Origin: a virus
Lineage: Duplodnaviria; Heunggongvirae; Uroviricota; Caudoviricetes
Length of the DNA stretch: 20,429 nt
IMG/VR virus record: IMGVR_UViG_3300045988_007995
Coordinates: 1 to 20,429 of that record
Reading direction: 5' to 3' (one strand)
Position 1 is the stretch's first letter. The number at the start of each line of letters is the position of its first letter. The notes under the pieces are model-generated. The model saw nothing but the letters and a program-made list of their open reading frames with translations. It searched no databases and had not been told where the DNA came from. Below are positions 2 through 13,572 of the stretch, piece by piece. Made by a program: the position numbers and the translations under genes.

Positions 2-400
2 TCACTCACTCAAGCAGGGCTAGTTGAAGGTTTTCAGTGGGTAGATGGAAGCTTCACAGAACATATTGAACTTATTGAAAAAAGGCCACCGAATGATGTC
101 GATGTTGTGACCTTTTTTCAATTCAGTAATGGCGATAATGATGCAATCGTAATCGGTAGAAAGCCAGAGCTATTTGATCATGATTTTGTTAAGAAGGAGT
201 TTTTCGTAGATTCCTACTTCCAAGAACTTAATCTACCAAGTCATGAGCTTGTTGAAATGACTGTATATTGGTACAGTATGTGGGCACATAGACGCGATCT
301 GTCGTGGAAGGGATTTATCCAAATCCCGTTAAACCCACAACTTGATGTTGTGGCAATGACTATACTTAATTCGGCTACTACTGAGGGGGTCAAACAATGA
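2..400 (+). CDS. 5'-truncated hypothetical protein; first gene of a two-gene operon in the immunity region (rexA-equivalent position)
   Basis: Reading frame is open from the window edge to TGA at 398-400 with no internal start before the end of the frame; stop overlaps the ATG of the next gene (ATGA at 397-400). AT-rich by eye. No motif I can assign. Confidence 0.55.
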   Translation, partial: SLTQAGLVEGFQWVDGSFTEHIELIEKRPPNDVDVVTFFQFSNGDNDAIVIGRKPELFDHDFVKKEFFVDSYFQELNLPSHELVEMTVYWYSMWAHRRDLSWKGFIQIPLNPQLDVVAMTILNSATTEGVKQ

Positions 401-1326
401 ATCGTAATGATTATGTTTTCGCTCTCAGTGAGCGCGAGCAAATAAGTAATCTATTAAAAAATATGCCAACAAGTCATTCTATTAGCCGAAAAAGCTTAGA
501 AGACCGTCTGGAGAAAGTTGAGCGATTAATTTCACAAGCTGACGTTCGAGAACATGAACCTACGCATGCTGTGTTAACTTTTAGAGGCCCAACAGTAGTT
601 GGCACGCATGGCATTTCAGCAGTATTTGGAACAAAAGCTATATCTTGTTTTAATGATGCAATAGCTTACTTGGCAACCTCTTTCAATGGCCCACTTCCTG
701 CATCAGGCAAGATACCAAACATAGAAAATAATCATCTCATGATTACCGCGTCAGCCCGTGGTTCTTTCGGATTCGTACTTGAAGAGTTTAGACCTGATGC
801 TCCTCTTGAATTCGATGAAGAAACCCCAGTAGCAAAAGCTATTAATAAGGCCAGAAAAATATTTCAGGCAAGCTTGGATAATGATGATGAAGAATTGTCT
901 GATGCTATAGAAAACTTAGACTCTCGGGCCTTAGATAAAATCAGAGCATTCATTCATTATCTGCATGAAAATAAAACAGTTTTTACACTTAAAAGCCAAG
1001 GTTTTAGCATCGTTTTTAGAGAGCCAAAACAGCTTGAAGCTGTATATCAACATCTCAGCAATGATAACATTCAGCAGGAAAAAATTATTGAGAACGTTAT
1101 ATTTTTGGGAACTCTTCCTAACAAGCGCCAATGTGAATTTATAGTTTTAGGTAACACTGATATCAGAACCGCTAGCATTGACAAAGCTGTAGATGACCCA
1201 GATATTATAAACAAGCACTTAGGAAGCGTTGCAACAGCCACGTTCCTGAAAAAAACTGTTGGTAAGGGCAAGCCCAGATACACTCTGGTTTCTCGACCTC
1301 AATGGGATATTAAATCAATCGATTAG
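397..1326 (+). CDS. hypothetical 309-aa protein; second gene of the immunity-region operon (rexB-equivalent position but not membrane-like)
   Basis: 309-codon ORF, ATG overlapping upstream stop (translational coupling), followed 15 nt later by a strong intrinsic terminator; AT-rich by eye; no long hydrophobic segments, no Walker or nuclease motif I can recognise. Confidence 0.7.
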   Translation: MNRNDYVFALSEREQISNLLKNMPTSHSISRKSLEDRLEKVERLISQADVREHEPTHAVLTFRGPTVVGTHGISAVFGTKAISCFNDAIAYLATSFNGPLPASGKIPNIENNHLMITASARGSFGFVLEEFRPDAPLEFDEETPVAKAINKARKIFQASLDNDDEELSDAIENLDSRALDKIRAFIHYLHENKTVFTLKSQGFSIVFREPKQLEAVYQHLSNDNIQQEKIIENVIFLGTLPNKRQCEFIVLGNTDIRTASIDKAVDDPDIINKHLGSVATATFLKKTVGKGKPRYTLVSRPQWDIKSID

Positions 1327-1340
1327 AATGAGCCCCTTCA

Positions 1341-1368
1341 GCCCGGCCTCCGCGCCGGGTTTTCTTTT
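1341..1368 (+). terminator. Rho-independent terminator closing the immunity-region operon (tImm-like position)
   Basis: GC-rich hairpin CCCGGC-ctccgc-GCCGGG (1342-1359) followed by TTTTCTTTT. Confidence 0.75.
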
Positions 1369-1518
1369 ACCATCAGCCCGTCAAAAACACACCTAACGAA
1401 TTGTATTTATTGAATAAATATAAATCACACTTATCACATTGCGCAATTCAGCTCCTACACATCCAGACTAGCTCTGCAAAACTTTAAAAAAATAAATCAA
1501 TAGTAAAAACATGCACAT

Positions 1519-1581
1519 AACCATTTGCGGTAATATTTTATCTCTAGCGGTGTTGACGAAAATACCTCCGGCGGTGATACT
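1519..1581 (+). promoter_or_regulatory. Lambda-type OL3-OL2-OL1 operator triplet overlapping a PL-like sigma70 promoter (rightward in this window)
   Basis: Three 17-bp sites AACCATTTGCGGTAATA (1519-1535), TATCTCTAGCGGTGTTG (1539-1555), TACCTCCGGCGGTGATA (1563-1579) with 3-bp and 7-bp spacers; -35 TTGACG (1553-1558), 17-bp spacer, -10 GATACT (1576-1581). By recollection each operator differs from lambda OL3/OL2/OL1 at only 1-2 positions and the downstream transcript start region (acacatcagcaggacgc) is lambda-like. Confidence 0.8.
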
Positions 1582-1626
1582 AAACACATCAGCAGGACGC
1601 TGGAAGCTAAATGGAACAGACTGGCA

Positions 1627-1673
1627 GGCTCTTTAAACAACGTCGACTCTCGACTACGTGGCTGAAAAGCCAG
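1627..1673 (+). promoter_or_regulatory. candidate nutL site (boxA plus boxB hairpin) in the PL leader
   Basis: boxA-like GGCTCTTTAAACAA (1627-1640) about 40 nt downstream of the predicted PL start, followed by small hairpin TGGCT-GAAA-AGCCA (1659-1672) with a GNRA-type loop; lies between PL and the N-like gene. Confidence 0.5.
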
Positions 1674-1770
1674 ATCACCCAACCACATAAGCTGTGGGAT
1701 GCAATGCCGAAGCAACCGTCTCAGGAGGAGCTTCGAGATTGCATCACCAAAGTTTATTCGGGAGGAATCT

Positions 1771-2043
1771 ATGTCCAGAAAAACAGAATTTAAAGGCACC
1801 TCAGCTTCTCGTCGTAGAGCTCGTCGCGCAAACCTGCAAAGTCAGGAGGCGATTAGCTCCGACAAGCTACACAGACCAACCCCCTCTCGAGTGGTCTTGC
1901 AATGCAAGCGCAAACCAGCAATGAGAGCAGAAGTAATAACACTGACAACGTTGACCAGAAAATATGAAGGCTCAACTTGTCTTCCAAATGTAGCTCTTTA
2001 CGCGGCAGGCTACCGGAAATCCAAACAACTGACAGCAAGATGA
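1771..2043 (+). CDS. N: N-like transcription antitermination protein (arginine-rich motif)
   Basis: ATG at 1771 preceded by GGAGG (1761-1765); N-terminal arginine-rich motif GTSASRRRARRANLQSQ resembling the ARM of lambdoid N proteins; first gene downstream of PL and nutL. The longer ORF from 1699 lacks an RBS and overlaps the leader. Confidence 0.7.
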   Translation: MSRKTEFKGTSASRRRARRANLQSQEAISSDKLHRPTPSRVVLQCKRKPAMRAEVITLTTLTRKYEGSTCLPNVALYAAGYRKSKQLTAR

Positions 2044-2104
2044 CTTGTGTTGGTCGCCAGAAAATGAAATTAGGCAGCAAACCACTTATTTGAGAGGAAT
2101 TAAT

Positions 2105-2728
2105 ATGTCATCAATCCGCTTAACTACGAGAATGAAAGAGAAAATCGCTCGTAACGCTTTAATTAAATCTGGGGTTTTCACTGAGCTTGAAGAAGTAACA
2201 AAGTTAAAGAACCAGCTTGCACTTGACGCCAGAGTTGTTGCGTTTGGCGGTAAAAAGAAAACTGAGGAAGTGGATCAGTTATCATCCAAGTTAATGGCTA
2301 TAAGCGAAGAACTTGAAAAGCTGGGATGTTCATTTTACTCATGCGATGCCCGTTCAACTTCAATTTATCTGACTGTATCTGGCAGAAGGGTTGGCTGGTA
2401 TTCATATGGGAAAGACGGCAACGGCGAAGATATATTGCTCCCTACTCCGACCAAAGATAAATGCATGTTTAGCGCAGAACACGAAATAACAAAAAGGTTT
2501 GATGAAATCTGCGCATTGCAACAAAAACTTGAAGCCAAGAAAAAGGATATCGAATCAAATGTATGGGCTGCTTTGAACTCAGTCACAACAGTTAAGCGAC
2601 TTATTGAAGTTTGGCCTGAAAGCAAAGAGTTGCTACCAAAAGAAGCAGATAAAGCAAGTACAGCACTTCCTGCTTTACGGGTAGAAGATTTGAATAAGAT
2701 GATTGGACTTCCTTCCGAGGTCGCATAA
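2105..2728 (+). CDS. hypothetical 207-aa protein (AT-rich insert between N and the tL1-like terminators)
   Basis: ATG at 2105 preceded by GAGAGGAA; ORF-track frame 2045-2728; AT-rich by eye; occupies the lambda ral/sieB/ea10 interval but resembles none of them to my recollection. Confidence 0.6.
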   Translation: MSSIRLTTRMKEKIARNALIKSGVFTELEEVTKLKNQLALDARVVAFGGKKKTEEVDQLSSKLMAISEELEKLGCSFYSCDARSTSIYLTVSGRRVGWYSYGKDGNGEDILLPTPTKDKCMFSAEHEITKRFDEICALQQKLEAKKKDIESNVWAALNSVTTVKRLIEVWPESKELLPKEADKASTALPALRVEDLNKMIGLPSEVA

Positions 2729-2862
2729 TCGTCCTTTATTTTTGGCATAAACAACAGAATAAACACTGCACTGTGTATTCATTCCAACGAGTGAATACAC
2801 GGAGCAATGTCGCTCGTAACCAAACAGGAGCCGACTTGTTCTGATTATTGGAAATCTTCTTT

Positions 2863-2888
2863 GCCCTCCAGTGTGAGGGCCTTTTTAT
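2863..2888 (+). terminator. intrinsic terminator (first of a tandem pair, tL1-like)
   Basis: Hairpin GCCCTC-cagtgt-GAGGGC (2863-2880) followed by CTTTTTA. Confidence 0.65.
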
Positions 2889-2902
2889 ATGCATACCAAT
2901 AA

Positions 2903-2924
2903 CGCTTCACTCGAGGCGTTTTTC
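2903..2924 (+). terminator. intrinsic terminator (second of the tandem pair)
   Basis: Hairpin CGCTTC-actc-GAGGCG (2903-2918, one G-U pair) followed by TTTTT. Confidence 0.6.
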
Positions 2925-2949
2925 GTTATGTATAAATAAGGAGCACACC

Positions 2950-3090
2950 ATGCAATATGCCATTGCAGGGTGGCCTGTTGCTGGCTGCCCTTCCGAATCT
3001 TTACTTGAACGAATCACCCGTAAATTACGTGACGGATGGAAACGCCTTATCGACATACTTAATCAGCCAGGAGTCCCAAAGAATGGATAA
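2950..3090 (+). CDS. cIII: CIII (FtsH/HflB inhibitor), truncated to 46 aa relative to lambda
   Basis: ATG at 2950 after AAGGAG; product MQYAIAGWPVAGCPSESLLERITRKLRDGWKRLIDILNQPGVPKNG matches my recollection of the first 46 residues of lambda CIII (54 aa); TAA at 3088-3090 where lambda continues. Confidence 0.8.
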   Translation: MQYAIAGWPVAGCPSESLLERITRKLRDGWKRLIDILNQPGVPKNG

Positions 3091-3196
3091 AACACTTATG
3101 GCTATCCAGACTAAATTCACTATCGCCGCTTTTATTGGCGATGAAAAGATGTTTCGTGAGGCCGTCGAAGCCTACAGAAAATGGAGGTCAAAATGA
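3083..3196 (+). CDS. kil: Kil-like FtsZ-inhibiting peptide
   Basis: ATG at 3083 overlapping the end of cIII as in lambda; product MDKTLMAIQTKFTIAAFIGDEKMFREAVEAYRKW... closely matches my recollection of the lambda Kil N-terminus; TGA at 3194-3196 overlaps the next start. Confidence 0.7.
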   Translation: MDKTLMAIQTKFTIAAFIGDEKMFREAVEAYRKWRSK

Positions 3197-3381
3197 TTCC
3201 GGTAGAACTGGCGAAAACTCCAGAGTTAAGTCGATTAAAAAGAGAATATCACATTGCTGAGGCTCGTTACTGGCGTAAAGCGGGAGATAAATCAAAGAAA
3301 CAACTTTGCTTATGGCAGGCACAAAGAGAGCGCATGAATGAGCGTGAGTTTCTTTCCTCCCCATCCGAATTACCATTCTGA
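3193..3381 (+). CDS. hypothetical small protein (62 aa)
   Basis: ATG at 3193 preceded by GGAGG (3183-3187); ATGA overlap with kil stop; sits where lambda has gam but is unrelated by eye. Confidence 0.5.
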   Translation: MIPVELAKTPELSRLKREYHIAEARYWRKAGDKSKKQLCLWQAQRERMNEREFLSSPSELPF

Positions 3382-3389
3382 GGCAAATT

Positions 3390-4070
3390 ATGGGAACTGC
3401 GACATTAATACTCGGTGAATCTGGCACCGGAAAATCAACCAGCATGAGAAATATCAATCCAGAGGAAGCAATACTTATAAAACCAATAGGCAAGCCGCTT
3501 CCATTTAAATCAAAAGACTGGCTGGCATGGGATGCCAGAGCAAAAAAAGGAACCGTAGTTACCACTGACAAATGGGACGTAATAGTTGCCGTAATTAAGC
3601 GTGCTCACGAATACGGGAAAAGAATCGTTATTGTTGATGACTTCCAGTATGTGATGAGCAATGAGTTTATGCGCCGCTCAGAAGAAAAATCGTTTGATAA
3701 ATTCACTGAGATAGGCCGCCACGCATGGGAGGTGATTAAGGCTGCACAGGATGCACCTGATGACCTGAGAGTCTATTTTCTCGCACACACCGAAGAAACC
3801 CCTATGGGGCGTGTGAAAATGAAGACTATCGGCAAAATGCTGGACGAGAAAATCACTGTCGAAGGCATGTTTACTATAGTTCTTCGCACCCTTACCCGCG
3901 ATGACCAGTTCTTTTTCACCACGAAAAACAACGGTGCAGACACTGTTAAATCCCCAATAGGAATGTTTGATTCCAATGAGATTGATAACGATCTCTCTTT
4001 CGTCGATGCCACTGTTTGTGATTACTACGGCATCAATAATGTTCATCAAATTAAGGAAAACGCCGCATGA
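3390..4070 (+). CDS. P-loop ATPase, Sak4-like / RecA-family recombination protein
   Basis: Walker A GESGTGKST near the N-terminus and Walker B-like RIVIVDD; about 226 aa; located where lambdoid phages carry the recombination module; AT-rich by eye. Confidence 0.7.
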   Translation: MGTATLILGESGTGKSTSMRNINPEEAILIKPIGKPLPFKSKDWLAWDARAKKGTVVTTDKWDVIVAVIKRAHEYGKRIVIVDDFQYVMSNEFMRRSEEKSFDKFTEIGRHAWEVIKAAQDAPDDLRVYFLAHTEETPMGRVKMKTIGKMLDEKITVEGMFTIVLRTLTRDDQFFFTTKNNGADTVKSPIGMFDSNEIDNDLSFVDATVCDYYGINNVHQIKENAA

Positions 4071-4654
4071 GCAACGTGATTTTTACTTATAACGAAGAAG
4101 CAGCACTGACCGCAGGGCAAGGTGGTTTTATTAACGAAACTGGCGCCCATATCATTACCATTACTGAAGCAGAACTAAAGAAATCAGAAAAAGGAGCCAA
4201 ATTTATTGAGTTTTCTGGAGAATCCGACGACGGACGTAAAATCCAGTATCTTAGCGTTTGTGTTCAGAAAAATGACGGAACGGAAAACAAATTTGGCGCA
4301 AATGTCGTTCACGCCATGATGGGGTGTGCCGGGATTGGACAATTAACACAGCATATGGTTTCCGCCAGTAAATTTGTTGCACCTGAATTTCATGGAAAGA
4401 AAATCGGGTTAGTGCTCCAGAAAGTATTAACCACAAACAAAAAGACTGGCGCAGACAGCTACCAGATGGAAATACGCATCCCGTTTATTGCACAAACAGG
4501 TCAAACCCTTAAAGAAAAGGCAGAAGGCAAGCAACCAGAAACTATCGCCGACATGGTTGCCAGCCTCAAAGATAAAGACAATCGCTCTAAAAACGTAAGC
4601 CAGAATCATGCAGATGATTATGGTTACAGCCAGAACGATTACCCTGCTTTCTGA
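4067..4654 (+). CDS. putative phage single-strand DNA-binding protein partner of the Sak4-like ATPase (DUF669-type is a guess)
   Basis: ATGA overlap with upstream ATPase gene; 195 aa; C-terminus ...DDYGYSQNDYPAF resembles an acidic SSB-type tail; family assignment is from recollection of Sak4-SSB gene pairs only. Confidence 0.5.
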   Translation: MSNVIFTYNEEAALTAGQGGFINETGAHIITITEAELKKSEKGAKFIEFSGESDDGRKIQYLSVCVQKNDGTENKFGANVVHAMMGCAGIGQLTQHMVSASKFVAPEFHGKKIGLVLQKVLTTNKKTGADSYQMEIRIPFIAQTGQTLKEKAEGKQPETIADMVASLKDKDNRSKNVSQNHADDYGYSQNDYPAF

Positions 4655-5149: not shown

Positions 5150-5691
5150 AACAAATGTCACTAATTGAGATGGATGGATTCCTGAAAGGTAAATGCATCC
5201 CAAGCGATTTAAAGGTTAACGAAACAAACGCTGAATATCTGGTGCGTAAATTTGCTGAAGCGGAGGCCAAGTGCGCGGCGCTGGCGGCGGAGAGTGCGCT
5301 GGCTCGTAAGGCAGTTCAGGCATTCTGCGATGTTGTTGGCGACAACACCGAGGTTATCTGTGAGGCGGTTGGGAGAGATGGCGTTCTGGTTATTTTGGAG
5401 GCCATGAAGGCAACAGGAAATATGTCAGCCACCGACGCTTTCCTGGCTGAAATACGTGCGGAGGCACGCAACGAGGGGATTAACTACACCGCAAGCCGTC
5501 TTGCTGCTGCGTTCAATCACGGATTTATCAATAAGTCTTTGCGTGAAGTTTTCGACGTTACACGCATGATTTTGTCAGCGAAAGAAGAGTTGGCTAATGA
5601 ACCGCATCCGATTGATGGCCTGTCCGGTGAATATGCGGAGAAATCCCTTGAAGAATGGGCGGAACAGATTCGCAAAGGAGGCAACCAGTGA
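5146..5691 (+). CDS. hypothetical protein (181 aa)
   Basis: Complete ORF, translationally coupled on both sides (ATGA at 5146, GTGA at 5688); Ala-rich; no motif assigned. Confidence 0.55.
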
Positions 5692-7885: not shown

Positions 7886-7925
7886 AGTAGATTATGCATG
7901 ATGAATTTGATGGGTTTTGAATACT

Positions 7926-7951
7926 GCCGCCAACTATGGCGGCTTTATTTT
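7926..7951 (+). terminator. intrinsic terminator between the early operon and terS
   Basis: Hairpin GCCGCC-aactat-GGCGGC (7926-7943) followed by TTTATTTT. Confidence 0.7.
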
Positions 7952-7958
7952 GCATGGT

Positions 7959-7987
7959 ACTATTACCACAACGGTAACTATTACCAC
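7959..7987 (+). repeat. two exact 11-bp direct repeats ACTATTACCAC immediately upstream of the terS start
   Basis: Copies at 7959-7969 and 7977-7987 (18-bp period), ending 8 nt before the predicted terS ATG. Confidence 0.85.
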
Positions 7988-7994
7988 GGTGGTT

Positions 7995-8591
7995 ATGATG
8001 CCTGCTGAACCTAAAACCTATAAACGCAAATCAACGCAATTTAAGCCACTAACAGCAATGCAGGAGGCTTATTGCCAGTCATACATCAAAACGCCTGAAA
8101 ACCAGACTCAGGCAGCGATTAACGCAGGATTCTCCCCAAATACAGCGGCAGTTAAAGCCAGTCTCATGATGCGCGATGAACGCATTCAAAAACGGATTGC
8201 CGAGCTGATGGAAGAGCGCAACAAACGAATGCGCGTCAGTGCTGATTACGTTCTCATGCGCCTGGTGGAGATCGACCAGATGGACGTGATCGACATCCTC
8301 AACGACGATGGGAGCCTTAAGCCAATCCGCGAGTGGCCGAAAATCTGGCGCACTACGCTTAGTGGCTTTGATCTGTCATCGACCATCATGAACATGAACG
8401 AGGATTCGATAGAGACAATCCTCAAAAAAATTAAATGGCCTGACAAGGTGAAGAACCTCGAACTGATTGGTAAGCACGTCGACGTCAACGCATTCAAAGA
8501 ACGCCTGGATGTTAATGTGAATGTGACAATTGCTGATCGCATAGCGGCAGCCAGGAAGAGACTGAAAGAACGTCAGGATGGCAATCAGTGA
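7995..8591 (+). CDS. terS: terminase small subunit (P27-family-like)
   Basis: Located immediately upstream of and overlapping (GTGA) the large terminase gene; start placed at ATG 7995 (MMPAEPKTYKRK...) because the ORF-track extension from 7917 spans the terminator and direct repeats. Confidence 0.65.
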   Translation: MMPAEPKTYKRKSTQFKPLTAMQEAYCQSYIKTPENQTQAAINAGFSPNTAAVKASLMMRDERIQKRIAELMEERNKRMRVSADYVLMRLVEIDQMDVIDILNDDGSLKPIREWPKIWRTTLSGFDLSSTIMNMNEDSIETILKKIKWPDKVKNLELIGKHVDVNAFKERLDVNVNVTIADRIAAARKRLKERQDGNQ

Positions 8592-10063
8592 CAGATACAG
8601 CGTTATCTCCTGAAGAGCAGTTAATCGAGGATATTGCAGGGTTCACTCACGATCCGCTTGGCTATGCCCTCTATGCGTTCCCATGGGGGGAAGAGGGGAC
8701 TGAACTGGCACATGCCACCGGCCCACGTCAGTGGCAGGCTGATGCGTTCCGAGAGATACGTGATCACCTGCAGAATCCAGAGACGCGCTATCAGCCGCTT
8801 ATGCTGGCACGCGCTTCTGGTCACGGTATTGGTAAATCCGCATTCATCTCAATGCTGATCAACTGGGGCATGTCCACTTGCGAGGATTGTAAGGTCGTGG
8901 TGACCGCCAACACCGACAACCAGCTACGAACGAAGACCTGGCCGGAAATTATCAAGTGGTCGAACCTTGCTATCACGAAAGACTGGTTTACCTGTACCGC
9001 TACCGCGATGTACAGCAATGACCTAGGGCACGACAAGCGGTGGCGGGCTGACGCAATACCCTGGTCTGAGCACAACACCGAGGCATTCGCCGGACTACAC
9101 AACGAGCGCAAACGCATCATCGTGGTGTTTGATGAAGCGTCGAACATTGCGGATCTGGTGTGGGAAGTTGCCGAGGGTGCGCTTACGGACGAAGACACTG
9201 AGATTATTTGGGTGGCGTTCGGAAACCCTACACGTAACACCGGGCGTTTTCGCGAATGTTTCCGCAAATATAAACACCGCTGGAAAACTGCGCAGATTGA
9301 CAGCCGGACGGTGGAAGGCACTAACAAACAGCAGTTGCAGAAATGGGTTGATGACTACGGGGAAGACAGCGACTTCGTTAAAATCCGTGTGCGTGGCATA
9401 TTCCCTGATGCATCTGAATTGCAGTTTATCCCTACCGGTCTTACTGACGAGGCAATGAAACGGGTGGTAACCGCTGCGCAGGTTGCACATGCTCCGGTGA
9501 TAATCGGCGTTGACCCGGCATACTCCGGCGTTGATGACGCTGTGATATACCTGCGGCAGGGGCTACACAGTAAGGTGCTGTGGACTGGCAACAAGACTAC
9601 CGACGATCTGATTATGGCGAAGCGTATCGCTGACTTTGAAGACCAGTATCAGGCTGACGCGGTGTTCATCGACTTCGGTTACGGAACCGGTTTGAAGTCA
9701 ATCGGTGACGGCTGGGGTCGTACATGGCAACTTGTTCCGTTCGGTGGCGCGTCTACTGACCCGCAGATGCTCAACAAGCGTGGGGAGATGTTCAATTCAT
9801 GCAAGACATGGCTGAGGCTGGGCGGCATGCTGGATGACCAGGAAACAGCAGACGACCTGTCGGCGGCAGAGTACAAAGTTCGAGTGGACGGTAAAATCGT
9901 TATCGAACCGAAGGAAGATATCAAGGAGCGGCTTGGGCGTTCACCGGGTAAAGGCGATGCGCTACTGCTGACGTTTGCGTTCCCTGTGTCTAAGCGTCTG
10001 CGAATTCCCGGTCAGCAGAACCAGCAAGGCAAGGCCATCACAGATTACGATCCCTATGCTTAA
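8588..10063 (+). CDS. terL: terminase large subunit
   Basis: 491-aa ORF; GTG start overlapping terS stop; ATPase-like segment ...IIVVFDEASNI... (Walker B-like) and overall size and position typical of phage TerL. Confidence 0.85.
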   Translation: MTDTALSPEEQLIEDIAGFTHDPLGYALYAFPWGEEGTELAHATGPRQWQADAFREIRDHLQNPETRYQPLMLARASGHGIGKSAFISMLINWGMSTCEDCKVVVTANTDNQLRTKTWPEIIKWSNLAITKDWFTCTATAMYSNDLGHDKRWRADAIPWSEHNTEAFAGLHNERKRIIVVFDEASNIADLVWEVAEGALTDEDTEIIWVAFGNPTRNTGRFRECFRKYKHRWKTAQIDSRTVEGTNKQQLQKWVDDYGEDSDFVKIRVRGIFPDASELQFIPTGLTDEAMKRVVTAAQVAHAPVIIGVDPAYSGVDDAVIYLRQGLHSKVLWTGNKTTDDLIMAKRIADFEDQYQADAVFIDFGYGTGLKSIGDGWGRTWQLVPFGGASTDPQMLNKRGEMFNSCKTWLRLGGMLDDQETADDLSAAEYKVRVDGKIVIEPKEDIKERLGRSPGKGDALLLTFAFPVSKRLRIPGQQNQQGKAITDYDPYA

Positions 10064-10104
10064 TCCGCTGGTGGGGATAATGTCGTTGATATCCTCTGGT
10101 GAGG

Positions 10105-10133
10105 ATAAAACAAAGCCAGCTCATAGGCTGGCT
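10105..10133 (-). terminator. minus-strand intrinsic terminator downstream of the opposite-strand gene pair
   Basis: Hairpin AGCCAGC-ctatga-GCTGGCT followed on the minus strand by TTGTTTTAT; protects terL from antisense read-through. Confidence 0.5.
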
Positions 10134-10137
10134 GTTT

Positions 10138-10149
10138 GTGACATGTCAC
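10138..10149. repeat. palindrome GTGACATGTCAC (copy 2), 4 nt downstream of the gene A stop codon
   Basis: Exact 12-bp palindrome; flanking context CTGtTTGTGACATGTCACGGtGTTA nearly identical to copy 3. Confidence 0.9.
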
Positions 10150-10153
10150 GGTG

Positions 10154-10486
10154 TTATTTCGGTAGATTGTGTTTGGCATTCGACTCGTCTATCACGTAAC
10201 GCATTGCAGTTCGACCGAGATTACCAGGATCTTCATGCAGACTCACTCGTGCCTTTAGGAGCACACATTCAGCCTTGACATAGTTTGCTGGAATTATTCC
10301 TACCTCGGCATTTTTAAATGCCTCCTTCACCGCCTCACCGTTGTACTGACCGCCAAGCAACTCTGTACATGTCAGGTTGTTATGGATAATTGCAAGGAGA
10401 TCTTTAATCTCTTCACGCAGGTTTACAATCGCCATCGCGGCATTGATAGCTGCGGCATAGCGCTCAGCTGCAGTCTTCTCTTTCAT
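10154..10486 (-). CDS. hypothetical 110-aa protein (opposite-strand insert gene A)
   Basis: Minus-strand ORF; start placed at MKEKTAAERY... (ATG complement at 10484-10486) preceded by AAGGTGA; the only long ORF in this interval on either strand. Confidence 0.55.
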   Translation of the reverse strand: MKEKTAAERYAAAINAAMAIVNLREEIKDLLAIIHNNLTCTELLGGQYNGEAVKEAFKNAEVGIIPANYVKAECVLLKARVSLHEDPGNLGRTAMRYVIDESNAKHNLPK

Positions 10487-10498
10487 GATTTTCACCTT

Positions 10499-10525
10499 AA
10501 AAAAATGCCCGGCGAATCGGCGGGC
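10499..10525 (-). promoter_or_regulatory. conserved hairpin plus T7 tract directly upstream of gene A RBS (copy 1 of duplicated 5' element)
   Basis: Minus strand reads GCCCGCCGATTCGCCGGGCATTTTTTTAAGGTGAAAATCATG; terminator-like stem GCCCG/CGGGC then U-tract, immediately followed by the RBS. Confidence 0.5.
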
Positions 10526-10530
10526 TGATT

Positions 10531-10542
10531 GTGACATGTCAC
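10531..10542. repeat. palindrome GTGACATGTCAC (copy 3), 4 nt downstream of the gene B stop codon
   Basis: Exact 12-bp palindrome in context CTGaTTGTGACATGTCACGGcGTTA. Confidence 0.9.
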
Positions 10543-10546
10543 GGCG

Positions 10547-10969
10547 TTAGAAGGTTATTTTATCGAATGCGGCGTTGATTGCCTTGGCGTCCTGCTCAGC
10601 ACCAACCACATCAAGTAAAGATCTTTTACTAAGCACTTCAGCCAGGCATTGTAACTTCATGTTGTATAAGTTTTCGCGCATGTAATCATCATCACTTTTT
10701 TCTTTGGCGTATACAGCGCGAGAAATATCAAACACATTGCCTTTTTCCATTTCAGTTTTCTGCGCTGAAATCCAGTCATGGCAAGTAACTCCTATTCCAT
10801 GGTCATCGCTAAGCGTTAACCCGGCAAGTCGCTCACCTGGAATTGCTTCACAAAGCATTTCATTTCCTGCAAAAACACCATAAAAAATTGAGTCATCACC
10901 CTGAACAATGCGTACATATTTGCACGGCCATTCATTTAGATATTTAGCTAGCATGTCGGCTGTTTTCAT
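10547..10969 (-). CDS. hypothetical 140-aa protein (opposite-strand insert gene B)
   Basis: Minus-strand ORF; start placed at MKTADMLAKY... (ATG complement at 10967-10969) preceded by TAGGTGA; upstream ORF-track extension crosses the hairpin/T-tract and is rejected. Confidence 0.55.
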   Translation of the reverse strand: MKTADMLAKYLNEWPCKYVRIVQGDDSIFYGVFAGNEMLCEAIPGERLAGLTLSDDHGIGVTCHDWISAQKTEMEKGNVFDISRAVYAKEKSDDDYMRENLYNMKLQCLAEVLSKRSLLDVVGAEQDAKAINAAFDKITF

Positions 10970-10979
10970 GATCTCACCT

Positions 10980-11005
10980 AAAAAAAATGCCCGGCGAATC
11001 GGGCG
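10980..11005 (-). promoter_or_regulatory. conserved hairpin plus T8 tract directly upstream of gene B RBS (copy 2 of duplicated 5' element)
   Basis: Minus strand reads CGCCCGATTCGCCGGGCATTTTTTTTAGGTGAGATCATG; about 40 nt alignable with copy 1. Confidence 0.5.
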
Positions 11006-11045
11006 AACTGGAAGCAATGAGTTATGCCTTCCGTGGCTGTACTGG

Positions 11046-11085
11046 TTTACAGCATGAAGCCATCGCAATGGCGTCATGCTGTAAA
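11046..11085. repeat. 40-bp near-perfect nested palindrome
   Basis: TTTACAGCATGA-aGCCATcgcaATGGCg-TCATGCTGTAAA: 12-bp outer arms with a 5-bp inner dyad. Confidence 0.85.
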
Positions 11086-11124
11086 AAGGGCGGTGATAGT
11101 CCTTCAAGGGAAACCATCACCGCC
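11083..11124 (-). terminator. minus-strand terminator 43 nt downstream of the tRNA
   Basis: 9-bp stem GGCGGTGAT/ATCACCGCC with 18-nt loop, followed on the minus strand by CTTTTT. Confidence 0.5.
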
Positions 11125-11167
11125 AAGCCCCTGGAACTTCTGGCATCACGGTCCTTAGGCGTGATTC

Positions 11168-11244
11168 TGGCGTGGCATGCAGGATTCGAACCTGCGACCA
11201 ACCGCTTAGAAAGCGGTTGCTCTGTCCAGCTGAGCTAATGCCAC
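11168..11244 (-). tRNA. tRNA-Arg (anticodon UCU), phage-encoded
   Basis: 77-nt cloverleaf on the minus strand: acceptor GTGGCAT/ATGCCAC, D-stem GCTC/GAGC, anticodon stem ACCGC/GCGGT with loop TT-TCT-AA, T-stem GCAGG/CCTGC with TTCGAAT loop, discriminator G and encoded CCA. Confidence 0.85.
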
Positions 11245-11671
11245 AACGCTGAGAGCACTTAGCCTGTTAAGGCGCCACACTTTGTCGCGGCTCCATAAAT
11301 GCTCTCATCGTTGTACCCTCGTCTCTTCCGAGGCGTCACACCGAATCGCCGGGATGGTGAATCCCCGTGCGCGGAATAAAACCGCTCGACTTGCACATTC
11401 CGGCTACCTGGTTCGTTTGCCACAGCCAGGGAGGGTGCCCCTTAAACGTATCCAGACCGCTATCGGCGCATGTGCCATACGCCGTACTGCTCAAAATAAA
11501 AGCTCACTCCACCTGTTCAATTTAACGACAAGCCAGTCAGGTTAGTAACCGGAATGAACTCTTTGGTTACCTGAAAGGTAATAATTTGTGCGTTAAATGT
11601 CAACTACCTACGATAAATAAATCATATGTGGTTAAATTGGTAATAATTTAATTGCGTACGGAGTCATTGAT

Positions 11672-11878
11672 ATGTGCATGGGTAGCTCACCATCAGTGCC
11701 TGCAACACCAGAAGTTCAGGCAGCACCACAGGAGCAGGATGCCGCCGTTGTTGATGCCCGCGACGAAGAAACTCGTCGCCGTCGCGCTGCTGCTGGTCGT
11801 AGTTCTACGCTGCTTACCGGTTCTCAGGGCGACACATCAACCGCTAATACCAGCGGTAAAACGCTGCTTGGTCAGTAA
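11672..11878 (+). CDS. small virion-associated protein candidate (T7 gp6.7-like?), 68 aa
   Basis: ATG at 11672 preceded by GGAG; begins MC..., Ser/Pro/Ala-rich; immediately upstream of the portal gene, whose leader shares the motif CGGAGTCATTGA(t/a)ATG. Confidence 0.45.
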   Translation: MCMGSSPSVPATPEVQAAPQEQDAAVVDARDEETRRRRAAAGRSSTLLTGSQGDTSTANTSGKTLLGQ

Positions 11879-11892
11879 CCGGAGTCATTGAA

Positions 11893-13572
11893 ATGGCGGA
11901 AACAACTAAAGAGCGATTGAACAAACAGTTCGCACAACTTGAAAGCGAGCGTCAGTCGTTCGAGCCGCACTGGCGCGAGTTGAGTGATTACATCAACCCG
12001 CGTGGTTCCCGCTTTCTGACTTCTGAGGTCAACCGTAACGATCGACGCAATACACGCATTATTGATTCGACCGGGACTATGGCGGCGCGCACTCTCGCCA
12101 GCGGCATGATGTCAGGCATCACAAGCCCCGCGCGTCCGTGGTTTCGCCTGGCTACGCCAGATCCTGAAATGATGGATTATGGCCCTGTTAAGTTGTGGCT
12201 TGAGGCGGTGCAGAACCGCATGAACGATATGTTCAATAAGTCGAATCTCTATCAGTCGCTGCCGCAGTTATACGGAAGCCTCGGCACATACAGCACTGGT
12301 GCAATGGCAGTGCTGGAGGATGACGAGGACATCATTCGCACAATGCCATTCCCGATAGGCAGTTACTACCTGGCTAACTCACCTCGTGGCAGTGTGGACA
12401 CCTGTTTTCGCAAGTTCTCTATGACTGTTCGTCAGCTTGTTCAGGAGTTCGGGCTAAATAACGTCAGCGAATCCGTAAAAAGCATGTGGGAAAGCGGAAC
12501 CTACGAGAAGTGGATTGAAGTGATGCATTCGGTTTACCCGAACATTGACCGCGATACATCGAAGCTGGATAGCAAGAACAAGCCATTCAAATCGGTTTAT
12601 TACGAGGTTGGTGGCGATAACGACAAGTTGTTGCGTGAGTCCGGATTCGATGAGTTTCCAATTATGGCTCCGCGCTGGGAAGTTAACGGCGAAGATGTTT
12701 ATGGATCATCATGCCCGGGTATGCTGGCGCTTGGACCTGTTAAGGCATTGCAGCTTCTCCAGAAGCGCAAGTCGCAGTTGATTGATAAAGCCACCAATCC
12801 GCCGATGGTTGCTCCGACTTCCCTCAAGAATCAGCGTGCCTCCCTTCTTCCTGGCGACATCACGTATATCGATCAGATTACTGGTCAGGATGGTTTCAGG
12901 CCTGCTTATCTGGTTAACCCCAGTACAGCAGATTTGGTGGCAGACATTCAGGACACCCGTCAAATCATTAACAGCGCCTACTTTGTCGATCTGTTCATGA
13001 TGTTGCAGAACATCAATACCCGCTCGATGCCTGTTGAAGCGGTGATCGAAATGAAAGAAGAAAAACTTCTGATGTTGGGGCCGGTTCTGGAGCGTCTGAA
13101 CGACGAATGTCTTAATCCTCTCATTGACCGCGCTTTCTCGATGATGGTGCGTAAAAACATGCTGCCGCCACCGCCTGACGCGATGGAAGGTATGCCCCTG
13201 AAGGTCGAATACATTTCCGTCATGGCTCAGGCGCAGAAGTCTATCGGCCTGTCCAGTCTGGCGTCTACGGTCAACTTCATTGGTCAACTTGCGCAAGCGA
13301 AACCAGAAGCTCTCGACAAACTCAACGTTGATCAGGCGATCGATGCATTCGCTGATATGTCCGGAGTGTCTCCAACCGTCATTGTTCCGCAGGAACAGGT
13401 TGAGCAGGCTCGCCAGCAACGGGCACAGCAACAACAGCAGCAACAAATGATGGCGATGGGGATGGCGGCGGCACAGGGTGCCAAGACGCTAAGCGAAGCT
13501 AAAACTTCGGATCCGAGTGTTTTGTCAGCTATGGCGAATGCAGTTAGTGGTCAGGGTGGGCAATCACAATGA
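11893..13572 (+). CDS. portal (head-to-tail connector) protein, T7 gp8-like
   Basis: 559-aa ORF following terL; C-terminal Q/A/M-rich tract (QQRAQQQQQQQMMAMGMAAAQGAK) resembles the T7 connector C-terminus as I recall it. Confidence 0.8.
   Translation: MAETTKERLNKQFAQLESERQSFEPHWRELSDYINPRGSRFLTSEVNRNDRRNTRIIDSTGTMAARTLASGMMSGITSPARPWFRLATPDPEMMDYGPVKLWLEAVQNRMNDMFNKSNLYQSLPQLYGSLGTYSTGAMAVLEDDEDIIRTMPFPIGSYYLANSPRGSVDTCFRKFSMTVRQLVQEFGLNNVSESVKSMWESGTYEKWIEVMHSVYPNIDRDTSKLDSKNKPFKSVYYEVGGDNDKLLRESGFDEFPIMAPRWEVNGEDVYGSSCPGMLALGPVKALQLLQKRKSQLIDKATNPPMVAPTSLKNQRASLLPGDITYIDQITGQDGFRPAYLVNPSTADLVADIQDTRQIINSAYFVDLFMMLQNINTRSMPVEAVIEMKEEKLLMLGPVLERLNDECLNPLIDRAFSMMVRKNMLPPPPDAMEGMPLKVEYISVMAQAQKSIGLSSLASTVNFIGQLAQAKPEALDKLNVDQAIDAFADMSGVSPTVIVPQEQVEQARQQRAQQQQQQQMMAMGMAAAQGAKTLSEAKTSDPSVLSAMANAVSGQGGQSQ

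Follow-up and report, generated by a model that had tools for sequence, protein, structure and literature searches.

A conserved phage tRNA-Arg(UCU) gene between the terL and portal genes, and the widespread structured leader RNA upstream of it

Stx phages such as 933W have a cluster of rare-codon tRNA genes, ileZ-argN-argO, in the late operon upstream of stx. We analyzed a 20,429-bp stretch of DNA from a tailed phage (IMG/VR record IMGVR_UViG_3300045988_007995, positions 1 to 20,429; the whole stretch is called the window here), which carries a tRNA-Arg(UCU) gene at 11168-11244, by means of open reading frames (ORFs), Pfam, PHROG, PADLOC, Rfam 15, ARAGORN, and terminator and promoter scans. 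Like the 933W cluster, this locus is an AGA/AGG-reading tRNA of a temperate enterobacterial phage for which rare-codon supply is the usual explanation; unlike ileZ-argN-argO, it is a single tRNA between packaging and head genes, antisense to them and fused to a structured leader. The tRNA-Arg of phiV10-like and SPN1S-like Uetakeviruses is the same gene in the same slot, strand and flanks (75-76 of 77 nt), from which the window copy differs by a private C32U, and its phage differs by a lambdoid N-cIII-kil segment upstream of terS. The K-12 gene argU has the same anticodon, T-arm, length and ArgRS identity nucleotides, and the same anticodon loop as the common phage allele, but it differs at 13-15 of 77 positions, including five compensated stem pairs, and lies in another genomic context.

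The leader has its own points of comparison. GOLLD and ROOL are large phage-associated RNAs, and the C4 RNA of phage P1 is an RNase P-processed unit. The leader resembles GOLLD and ROOL in being a large ornate prophage RNA that adjoins tRNA genes, where a tRNA-like fold offers a processing site; unlike GOLLD, ROOL, HEARO and C4, it has no Rfam match (E up to 1-5), its hosts are Enterobacterales and its fold is another one. Like the put RNAs of HK022 and HK639, its siphovirus homologues are promoter-proximal, at the head of the early-left operon and beside the repressor gene, with terminators downstream. Unlike the put RNAs (~70-126 nt), it has a core of ~170 nt with accessory domains, its sequence is unlike that of the HK639 putL-like RNA and of the part of the HK022 early-left region that was examined, and in Uetakeviruses it heads a short moron unit only.

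We confirmed that positions 11168-11244 are a genuine tRNA, with coordinates and elements far beyond chance:

11168-11244, minus strand: tRNA-Arg, anticodon UCU, 77 nt, CCA encoded (ARAGORN, Rfam RF00005, fold, comparison with argU)
11080-11124, minus strand: intrinsic-terminator-like hairpin (stem-loop 11124-11089) and T-run (terminator scan)

A first-pass annotation made from the letters had read a complete tRNA-Arg(UCU) here with an encoded CCA and its own terminator, and these readings held. ARAGORN accepted the fold and returned the same isotype, calling this as the single tRNA of the whole window (anticodon tct at position 35), and RF00005 matched it with 71.1 bits (gathering score 29, E = 4.9e-14). 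The isolated 77-mer folded at -36.5 kcal/mol (z = -4.58, 200 shuffles) into a cloverleaf with canonical 7/4/5/5-bp stems, in which 21/21 pairs were standard in all 6 distinct sequences, and the 3' CCA is present in the DNA. The terminator-like hairpin on the tRNA strand (14 pairs, then CTTTTT) lies 44 nt beyond the tRNA 3' end and probably ends the leader-tRNA transcript; a terminator after the tRNA, or after a tRNA-like module, is conserved in related phages.

The ArgRS identity set consists of A20, C35, U/G36 and A/G73. In the alignment with argU we found A20, C35, U36 and G73 in the window tRNA, whose D-loop reads AGCUGGACA with A at the column aligned to argU A20 and whose discriminator is G, so that the tRNA should be charged with arginine by ArgRS. 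The comparison with host argU, which had been proposed as a check, pointed to a separate gene: the window copy is 62/77 identical to K-12 argU (81%) and the phiV10 copy 64/77; five stem pairs are fully compensated, and pairing reaches 100% of the stem cells. Because of these compensated pairs and the full pairing, the alignment argues for a distinct tRNA under selection and not a decaying copy of a host gene.

The tRNA as such was already known: epsilon15-like temperate podoviruses (Uetakevirus) of the phiV10/SPN1S branch carry it as their conserved tRNA. An equivalent tRNA in the equivalent slot was found in phiV10, TL-2011b, O157 typing phages 9/10, ZX5, SPN1S-type Salmonella phages and Klebsiella prophages, and it is carried by the isolated virion genomes phiV10, ZX5 and SPN9TCW. 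It is annotated in SPN9TCW, SPN1S, O157 typing phages 9/10 and phiv142-3 (records with a tRNA annotation: KP869107/8, MN187550, JQ691610, KC911856/7 and RefSeq E. coli prophages), and the paper on vB_EcoP_ZX5 reports "one tRNA" (PMC9782041). The window tRNA is identical to that of phiV10 at 75/77 and to that of ZX5 at 76/77 positions, and a 231-bp segment including the flanks is 99.1-99.6% identical to sister phages. Moreover, 499 of 5,426 complete E. coli genomes (9%) contain it, annotated there as tRNA-Arg. Together with 24 instances from the viral contig collection (among the matches listed; phages of Escherichia, Salmonella and Klebsiella), the window gave 25 instances with only 9 distinct sequences. 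UCU and CCA were kept in all of them while the flanks diverge, and variation was limited to the D-loop, the variable loop, the wobble-compatible acceptor positions 70/71 and a G/A discriminator. The D-loop C of the window (window 11229, alignment column 16) is common to ZX5 and strain 97-3250.

Some records miss the gene. In RefSeq phiV10 (NC_007804.2) a hypothetical CDS, PhiV10p04 (2672-2923), is placed over the tRNA (2853-2929) on the opposite strand without a tRNA feature, and the ZX5 and TL-2011b records are at fault in the same way. PhiV10p04 is a spurious CDS, an annotation error.

The slot of the tRNA is defined by three genes, to which the tRNA gene is antisense, with TerL on one side and gp3/portal on the other:

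8588-10063, plus strand: terminase large subunit (TerL), left neighbour of the tRNA slot
11672-11878, plus strand: gp3-like small ORF, preceding the portal gene
11893-13572, plus strand: portal (Pfam Head-tail_con, E = 1.6e-187)

In epsilon15, the depositors annotated repressor-binding palindromes (ATTACC-N5-GGTAAT) before terS, gp3 and the tailspike gene, and terminators between these blocks. Since palindromes and terminators separate the blocks, the late region consists of several repressor-controlled operons, and the terL-gp3 interval is the gap between two of them. The window has a pair of operator-like palindromes before terS (7962-7978, 7980-7996) and a third one at 11566-11582. The first two fall inside the listed TTG-start terS ORF (7917-8591), and the true terS start is probably downstream of them. 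The first-pass annotation had placed the tRNA on the opposite strand inside the packaging-head region and had called this unusual. The strand and the position between terL and portal stand, while "inside" an operon does not, as the slot is an inter-operon gap with palindromes and terminators. Nor is the placement unusual: all 24 other instances among the matches listed have TerL and/or gp3/portal flanks and the opposite strand, and it is normal for the lineage because the gap is occupied alike in relatives. With its variable minus-strand cargo, the gap is a classical moron slot.

For the function of the gene, the reading that we consider somewhat better than an even chance, judged from sequence comparisons, is a functional phage tRNA-Arg(UCU) whose leader-tRNA unit would be expressed lytically and would supply AGA decoding to phage genes in a quantitative way. 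A candidate start of transcription lies at the far side of the leader:

11566-11603, minus strand: putative sigma-70 promoter, TTGACA (11603-11598), 17-nt spacer, TACCTT (11580-11575)

An operator-like palindrome, GTTACCTGAAAGGTAAT (11566-11582), overlaps the putative promoter so that the -10 lies inside it, and it has one mismatch to the epsilon15 repressor site ATTACC-N5-GGTAAT. TTGACA is invariant across the Uetakevirus alignments, and the promoter proposal draws only on conservation and on a -35 that is perfect, as is its spacing. From this promoter to the tRNA the scan gave a single terminator-like site, which is weak (11552-11533; 7 pairs, of which 3 are G-C, and a poor T-run), and from this we infer a transcript of ~520 nt through to the tRNA. 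In the proposed course of events, leftward transcription would start from TTGACA-N17-TACCTT (11603-11575), with the -10 inside the epsilon15-type repressor operator, so that the leader-tRNA unit would be silent in the lysogen and switched on in lytic growth. From there RNA polymerase would copy the structured leader and then the tRNA into one primary transcript of ~520 nt, stopping at the terminator at 11124-11089. Cleavage by RNase P where the long stem of the leader closes (tRNA G1) would form the tRNA 5' end, and 3' trimming would expose the encoded CCA. Host ArgRS would charge the product, which would read AGA and, more weakly, AGG, supplementing the scarce host argU tRNA for phage genes in which AGA is several times as frequent as in host genes (mainly early/accessory genes and those for large tail and ejection proteins). 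The benefit would be quantitative and not essential.

The codon counts agree with such a demand in part. AGA averages ~2 per 1000 codons in the E. coli genome. The window genes gave 8.0 per 1000 (15.5 for the early/accessory ones) and a complete related prophage 7.0-7.4, while the flanking host genes xseA, guaB and guaA have no AGA codon; AGA is enriched in early/accessory genes and in large tail and ejection proteins. Within the genus, three phages were compared:

epsilon15: tRNA absent, AGA 4.2 per 1000 codons
65FD: tRNA absent, AGA 6.5 per 1000 codons
SPN9TCW: tRNA present, AGA 5.8 per 1000 codons

Several results weigh against this reading. The most abundant head proteins have no AGA codons (there are none in the genes for portal, protease, major capsid and cement), and AGA use was not coupled to tRNA presence in the three phages above. 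The promoter scan of 9900-12000 called no site, because the -10 TACCTT matches the consensus at only 3/6 positions. The window copy also has a unique change in the anticodon loop, U at position 32 (window 11212, alignment column 33), an allele found in 0/499 tRNA-bearing E. coli genomes (best match one mismatch) and in 0/24 other instances among the matches listed; C32 is the s2C modification site in host tRNA-Arg, and C32U might alter decoding properties, a sequencing error being possible as well. Finally, in viable epsilon15 a clean deletion of 394 bp between 13-bp repeats (TTCCCTTGATGCT) has eliminated the tRNA. When epsilon15 (L003, 2116-3257) was compared with SPN9TCW (L004, 2148-3529), the epsilon15 junction was exactly the SPN9TCW left flank, one repeat and the SPN9TCW right flank. 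The deletion removed the tRNA and most of the leader; of the two repeat copies, one belongs to a leader hairpin and one to the terminator behind the tRNA. The tRNA is dispensable, since viable epsilon15 has deleted it. Codon supply, which the first-pass annotation had invoked, is thus the best-supported function as a quantitative benefit only, plausible but unproven. The site annotated 'RNaseIII' in epsilon15 is a remnant of the first helix of the leader.

The leader itself is a widespread, covariation-supported structured RNA that is unannotated in the examined records. Its parts in the window are as follows:

11317-11489, minus strand: conserved leader core (covariation alignment A7)
11484-11464, minus strand: helix P1 of the core, loop GGCAC
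11408-11390, minus strand: invariant 19-mer of the core, GGUAGCCGGAAUGUGCAAG
11333-11317, minus strand: hairpin P5 of the core (CCUCG-GAAGAGA-CGAGG)
11244-11313, minus strand: long stem read from the sequence, 5' strand 11313-11300, 3' strand 11257-11244, 13 bp, variable insert

Alignment A7 held 35 sequences at up to 93% identity. Its four helices were paired in 97.7% of cells, against 24-44% in slid controls, and compensatory change was seen in 10 pairs and 71 cells. Frequent strand-specific G.U pairs put the RNA on the tRNA strand, which RNAalifold also favours (-31.7 vs -22.7 kcal/mol). In the window, the 480 nt at 11560-11080 of the minus strand fold beyond shuffles (z = -4.73), and the structured RNA spans 11245-11560 of this strand, as well as 2470-2673 in L010 (P1), 2542-2744 in L011 and 740-927 in L017. 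The basal pair of the long stem abuts or includes tRNA G1; the stem is conserved and its inserts are variable (alignments A4 and A5). The inserts of SPN9TCW, 1720a-02 and BUCT554 hold T-arm-like hairpins of the GGTTCGAATCC or GGTTCAATTCC type. The sequences suggest repeated capture or decay of tRNA fragments within the leader RNA.

The ~240 nt just 5' of the tRNA are 77-82% identical to non-coding DNA of unrelated phages. In cdtI, mEp460, 2H10, Stx2c, Stx2k, 1720a-02 and mEp390, leader homologues stand at the start of the early-left operon, directly downstream of a cI-like repressor gene; in P1, P7, SJ46, RCS47 and D6 they lie between trnI and ban, and in Klebsiella Lastavirus SopranoGao after the lysis genes. 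In phage P1 (AF234172, 2470-2759), the element begins directly after the trnI CCA, stops ~40 nt before the ban start codon and lies inside the C1-controlled ban operon, without the long stem and without a tRNA-like 3' module. The invariant 19-mer GGTAGCCGGAATGTGCAAG was present in at least 120 viral contigs. Furthermore, 1,831 of the 5,426 complete E. coli genomes (34%) carry the core, including 548 places on plasmids, and among the matches listed it was nearly always unannotated, with a few called "hypothetical protein".

Known families and coding functions were considered for the leader and rejected. Rfam 15 gave nothing over it at E <=5 in the window and at E <=1 in mEp460, P1, BUCT554, SopranoGao and mEp390, so that a known Rfam family was rejected on permissive scans that were empty in six contexts, and a search of the indexed literature for the invariant blocks and the P1 trnI-ban spacer returned unrelated matches only. 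A protein-coding nature was rejected on the annotated ORFs lying on either strand, indels that are not multiples of 3, conserved nucleotides in different frames among phages and the strand-specific G.U pairs. HK022 putL and the HK639 putL-like RNA were rejected likewise, no motif or alignment match being found in the latter or in the HK022 early-left stretch examined.

Classified by neighbour, 121 unique leader instances (among the matches listed, as are the counts that follow) showed that the tRNA slot is a place for tRNA-shaped RNAs. A tRNA-Arg stood at the 3' junction in 25 of the 121; in 13 of P1 type the element starts directly after the CCA of a tRNA-Ile; about 40 had an element of 85-146 nt at the equivalent junction (GUUG|UGG...). 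A tRNA or tRNA-like module thus adjoins ~78/121 instances, and a terminator-like hairpin was found <=500 nt downstream in 96/113. Across 10 independent sequence clusters, the 85-146-nt element takes on the fold of a cloverleaf-like junction: the closing stem starts GUGG, a hairpin of 5 bp follows after 2-3 nt, the central arms vary, and another 5-bp hairpin directly adjoins the 3' strand. Where the Uetakeviruses KpST11 and BUCT554 carry this pseudo-tRNA, its up- and downstream flanks are homologous to those of the real tRNA. The element-bearing siphoviruses are those of the yfdP/yfdQ group, reported to be without an N homologue and suspected of RNA-based antitermination (PMC12315714).

Two readings of the leader may be entertained, a new put-like cis antiterminator or a discrete RNA with ends set by tRNA-processing enzymes. 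Taking the locus as a whole, we see about an even chance that the tRNA is one interchangeable 3' module of an undescribed family of large structured phage RNAs. With the balance again near the middle, each member would have a core of ~170 nt with accessory stems (a unit of ~520 nt here) under early or repressor-controlled promoters, its ends would be set by tRNA-maturation enzymes, and it may work in trans or as an antiterminator that needs no protein. To the same degree, which is to say evenly poised, we would extend this family to Uetakeviruses, N-less lambdoid siphoviruses (pL leader), P1-type phage-plasmids (trnI-ban) and Klebsiella Lastavirus.

Other explanations of the tRNA were weighed against its role in codon supply. 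It might be mainly structural, the 3' module of a composite non-coding RNA in which RNase P and 3'-end enzymes release or define the upstream RNA and AGA decoding is secondary; the functional product could then be the upstream RNA, as a cis put-like antiterminator or acting in trans. The long stem that stops exactly at tRNA G1, the cloverleaf-like element in the tRNA slot of tRNA-less Uetakeviruses (KpST11, BUCT554) and siphoviruses, the P1-type element directly after the tRNA-Ile CCA, the tRNA or tRNA-like neighbour of ~78 of the 121 listed instances, the strong covariation in the core and the terminators in front of downstream ORFs all speak for it. However, the anticodon, ArgRS identity elements and CCA are tightly constrained although a mere processing handle would not need them, as the degenerate pseudo-tRNAs elsewhere illustrate by doing without decoding features, and viable epsilon15 deleted the leader core and the tRNA together. 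We therefore regard a mainly structural tRNA as unlikely. Phage tRNAs have an established counter-defence role in other phages, and this one could replace host tRNA-Arg cut by colicin D-type or anticodon nucleases. The five acceptor/anticodon-stem pairs that differ from argU could change nuclease recognition, and lytic expression is predicted, but the anticodon loop is that of argU (CUUCUAA) in all 8 other variants whereas known evasion works via anticodon-loop changes, neither PADLOC nor Pfam matched the ORFs beside it, which leaves it without a linked nuclease or defence gene, and one isoacceptor only is carried, which makes this improbable.

Expression from the prophage is another candidate, by which the tRNA would raise AGA decoding in the host, for example for acquired AGA-rich genes. 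It has in its favour the strand opposite the late genes, the own terminator, the moron-like character and the carriage by 9% of complete E. coli genomes, but the only plausible promoter has its -10 in an operator-like palindrome, so that repression is predicted in lysogens, and we hold such lysogenic conversion to be quite improbable. That the gene is the host's own argU, standing where a prophage is attached, or a leftover of imprecise excision, would fit with argU being the DLP12 attachment site in K-12 and with the cIII element upstream. Phage structural genes stand on both sides, however, the gene is carried by virion genomes, and the phage group integrates at guaA with an unrelated core sequence; this origin, to which we give next to no weight, was ruled out by the terL/portal flanks, the 62/77 (81%) identity and the guaA integration site. 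Codon supply by a functional tRNA-Arg(UCU) is retained as the preferred reading.

The phage around the locus was examined as well. The 1.3-kb stretch around the tRNA is 99% identical to prophages of more than 100 E. coli genomes, of which the MCJCHV-1 copy is integrated beside guaA and carries structural genes of epsilon15 type (capsid staple gp10, Bbp16-type cement, T7 gp14-type core protein). The right two thirds of the window are ~98% identical to PAS61, O157 typing phages 9/10, HEMP4, ZX5, TL-2011b and phiV10 in the phage collection, 82% to Tyrion and 77% to epsilon15. The left third is lambdoid, with an N-like antiterminator, cIII/kil, a Sak4-like annealase, SSB and Ea22-like proteins, all on the plus strand and reading into terS:

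1699-2043, plus strand: N-like antiterminator of the lambdoid part
2937-2995, plus strand: lambda cIII thermoregulator RF01804 (Rfam, 88.5 bits)

The lambdoid early-left segment (1699-4654) stands directly upstream of the Uetakevirus terS-terL on a common strand, and its junction with phiV10-like sequence is near 5276. Since a lambdoid left part is joined to an epsilon15-type structural module, the phage is a mosaic whose pL-type operon points into the packaging genes. The lambdoid setting given to the tRNA by the first-pass annotation does not hold: only the left third of the window is lambdoid, and on the evidence of its neighbours and relatives the tRNA belongs to the packaging and head module of the epsilon15/phiV10-type podoviruses and not to the lambdoid one.

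The minus-strand cargo next to the tRNA is variable: a 123-aa Sf6 gene 66-like ORF in phiV10, a 140-aa ORF in the window and MCJCHV-1, a 272-aa ORF in strain 97-3250 and a DUF2829 protein in a Klebsiella prophage. Two cassettes of this kind stand in the window:

10547-10969, minus strand: 140-aa ORF, phrog_4846 (function not assigned), downstream cargo on the tRNA strand
10154-10486, minus strand: 110-aa ORF, phrog_27507, extra cassette of the window

Neither ORF has a Pfam or PADLOC match, and their PHROG families are without assigned function. The 140-aa ORF is preceded by a second hairpin with T-run (11004-10989) and an AGGTGA ribosome-binding site (RBS). In front of the 110-aa ORF, which the four Uetakevirus relatives in alignment A1 do not have, the hairpin/T-run/RBS module recurs (hairpin 10525-10507); behind this ORF come the palindrome GTGACATGTCAC and a terminator-like hairpin (10133-10114), whose equivalent position in phiV10 is annotated as the plus-strand terL terminator. 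Each cargo ORF thus has a GC hairpin, T-run and AGGTGA RBS in front and the palindrome GTGACATGTCAC behind (10138-10149, 10507-10542, 10989-11004), the ORFs of both cassettes stand directly behind terminators, and the window has two tandem cassettes while each of the four A1 relatives has one. Because of the common module and the tandem arrangement, the layout suggests cassette exchange by recombination at the hairpin/T-run/RBS module. The non-coding stretch 10985-11088 (minus strand), from the tRNA terminator to the 140-aa ORF, is conserved even in epsilon15, and more so than the adjoining coding DNA; its two hairpins and terminator give it an sRNA-like or attenuator-like layout.

The tRNA itself is ordinary phage cargo known in sister genomes, and its practical value is the correction of records that miss it. 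Within one genus its carriage is uncoupled from AGA usage, so that the standard codon-compensation story has the rank of a hypothesis here. The structured leader is worth a study of its own, since roughly one in three complete E. coli genomes carries it, as does the model phage P1, always beside an early promoter and very often beside a tRNA or a tRNA mimic. Should it turn out to be an antiterminator or a regulatory RNA made by processing, this would account for early terminator read-through in lambdoid phages without N, and it would provide an enterobacterial, genetically tractable counterpart of tRNA-associated phage RNAs such as GOLLD and ROOL.

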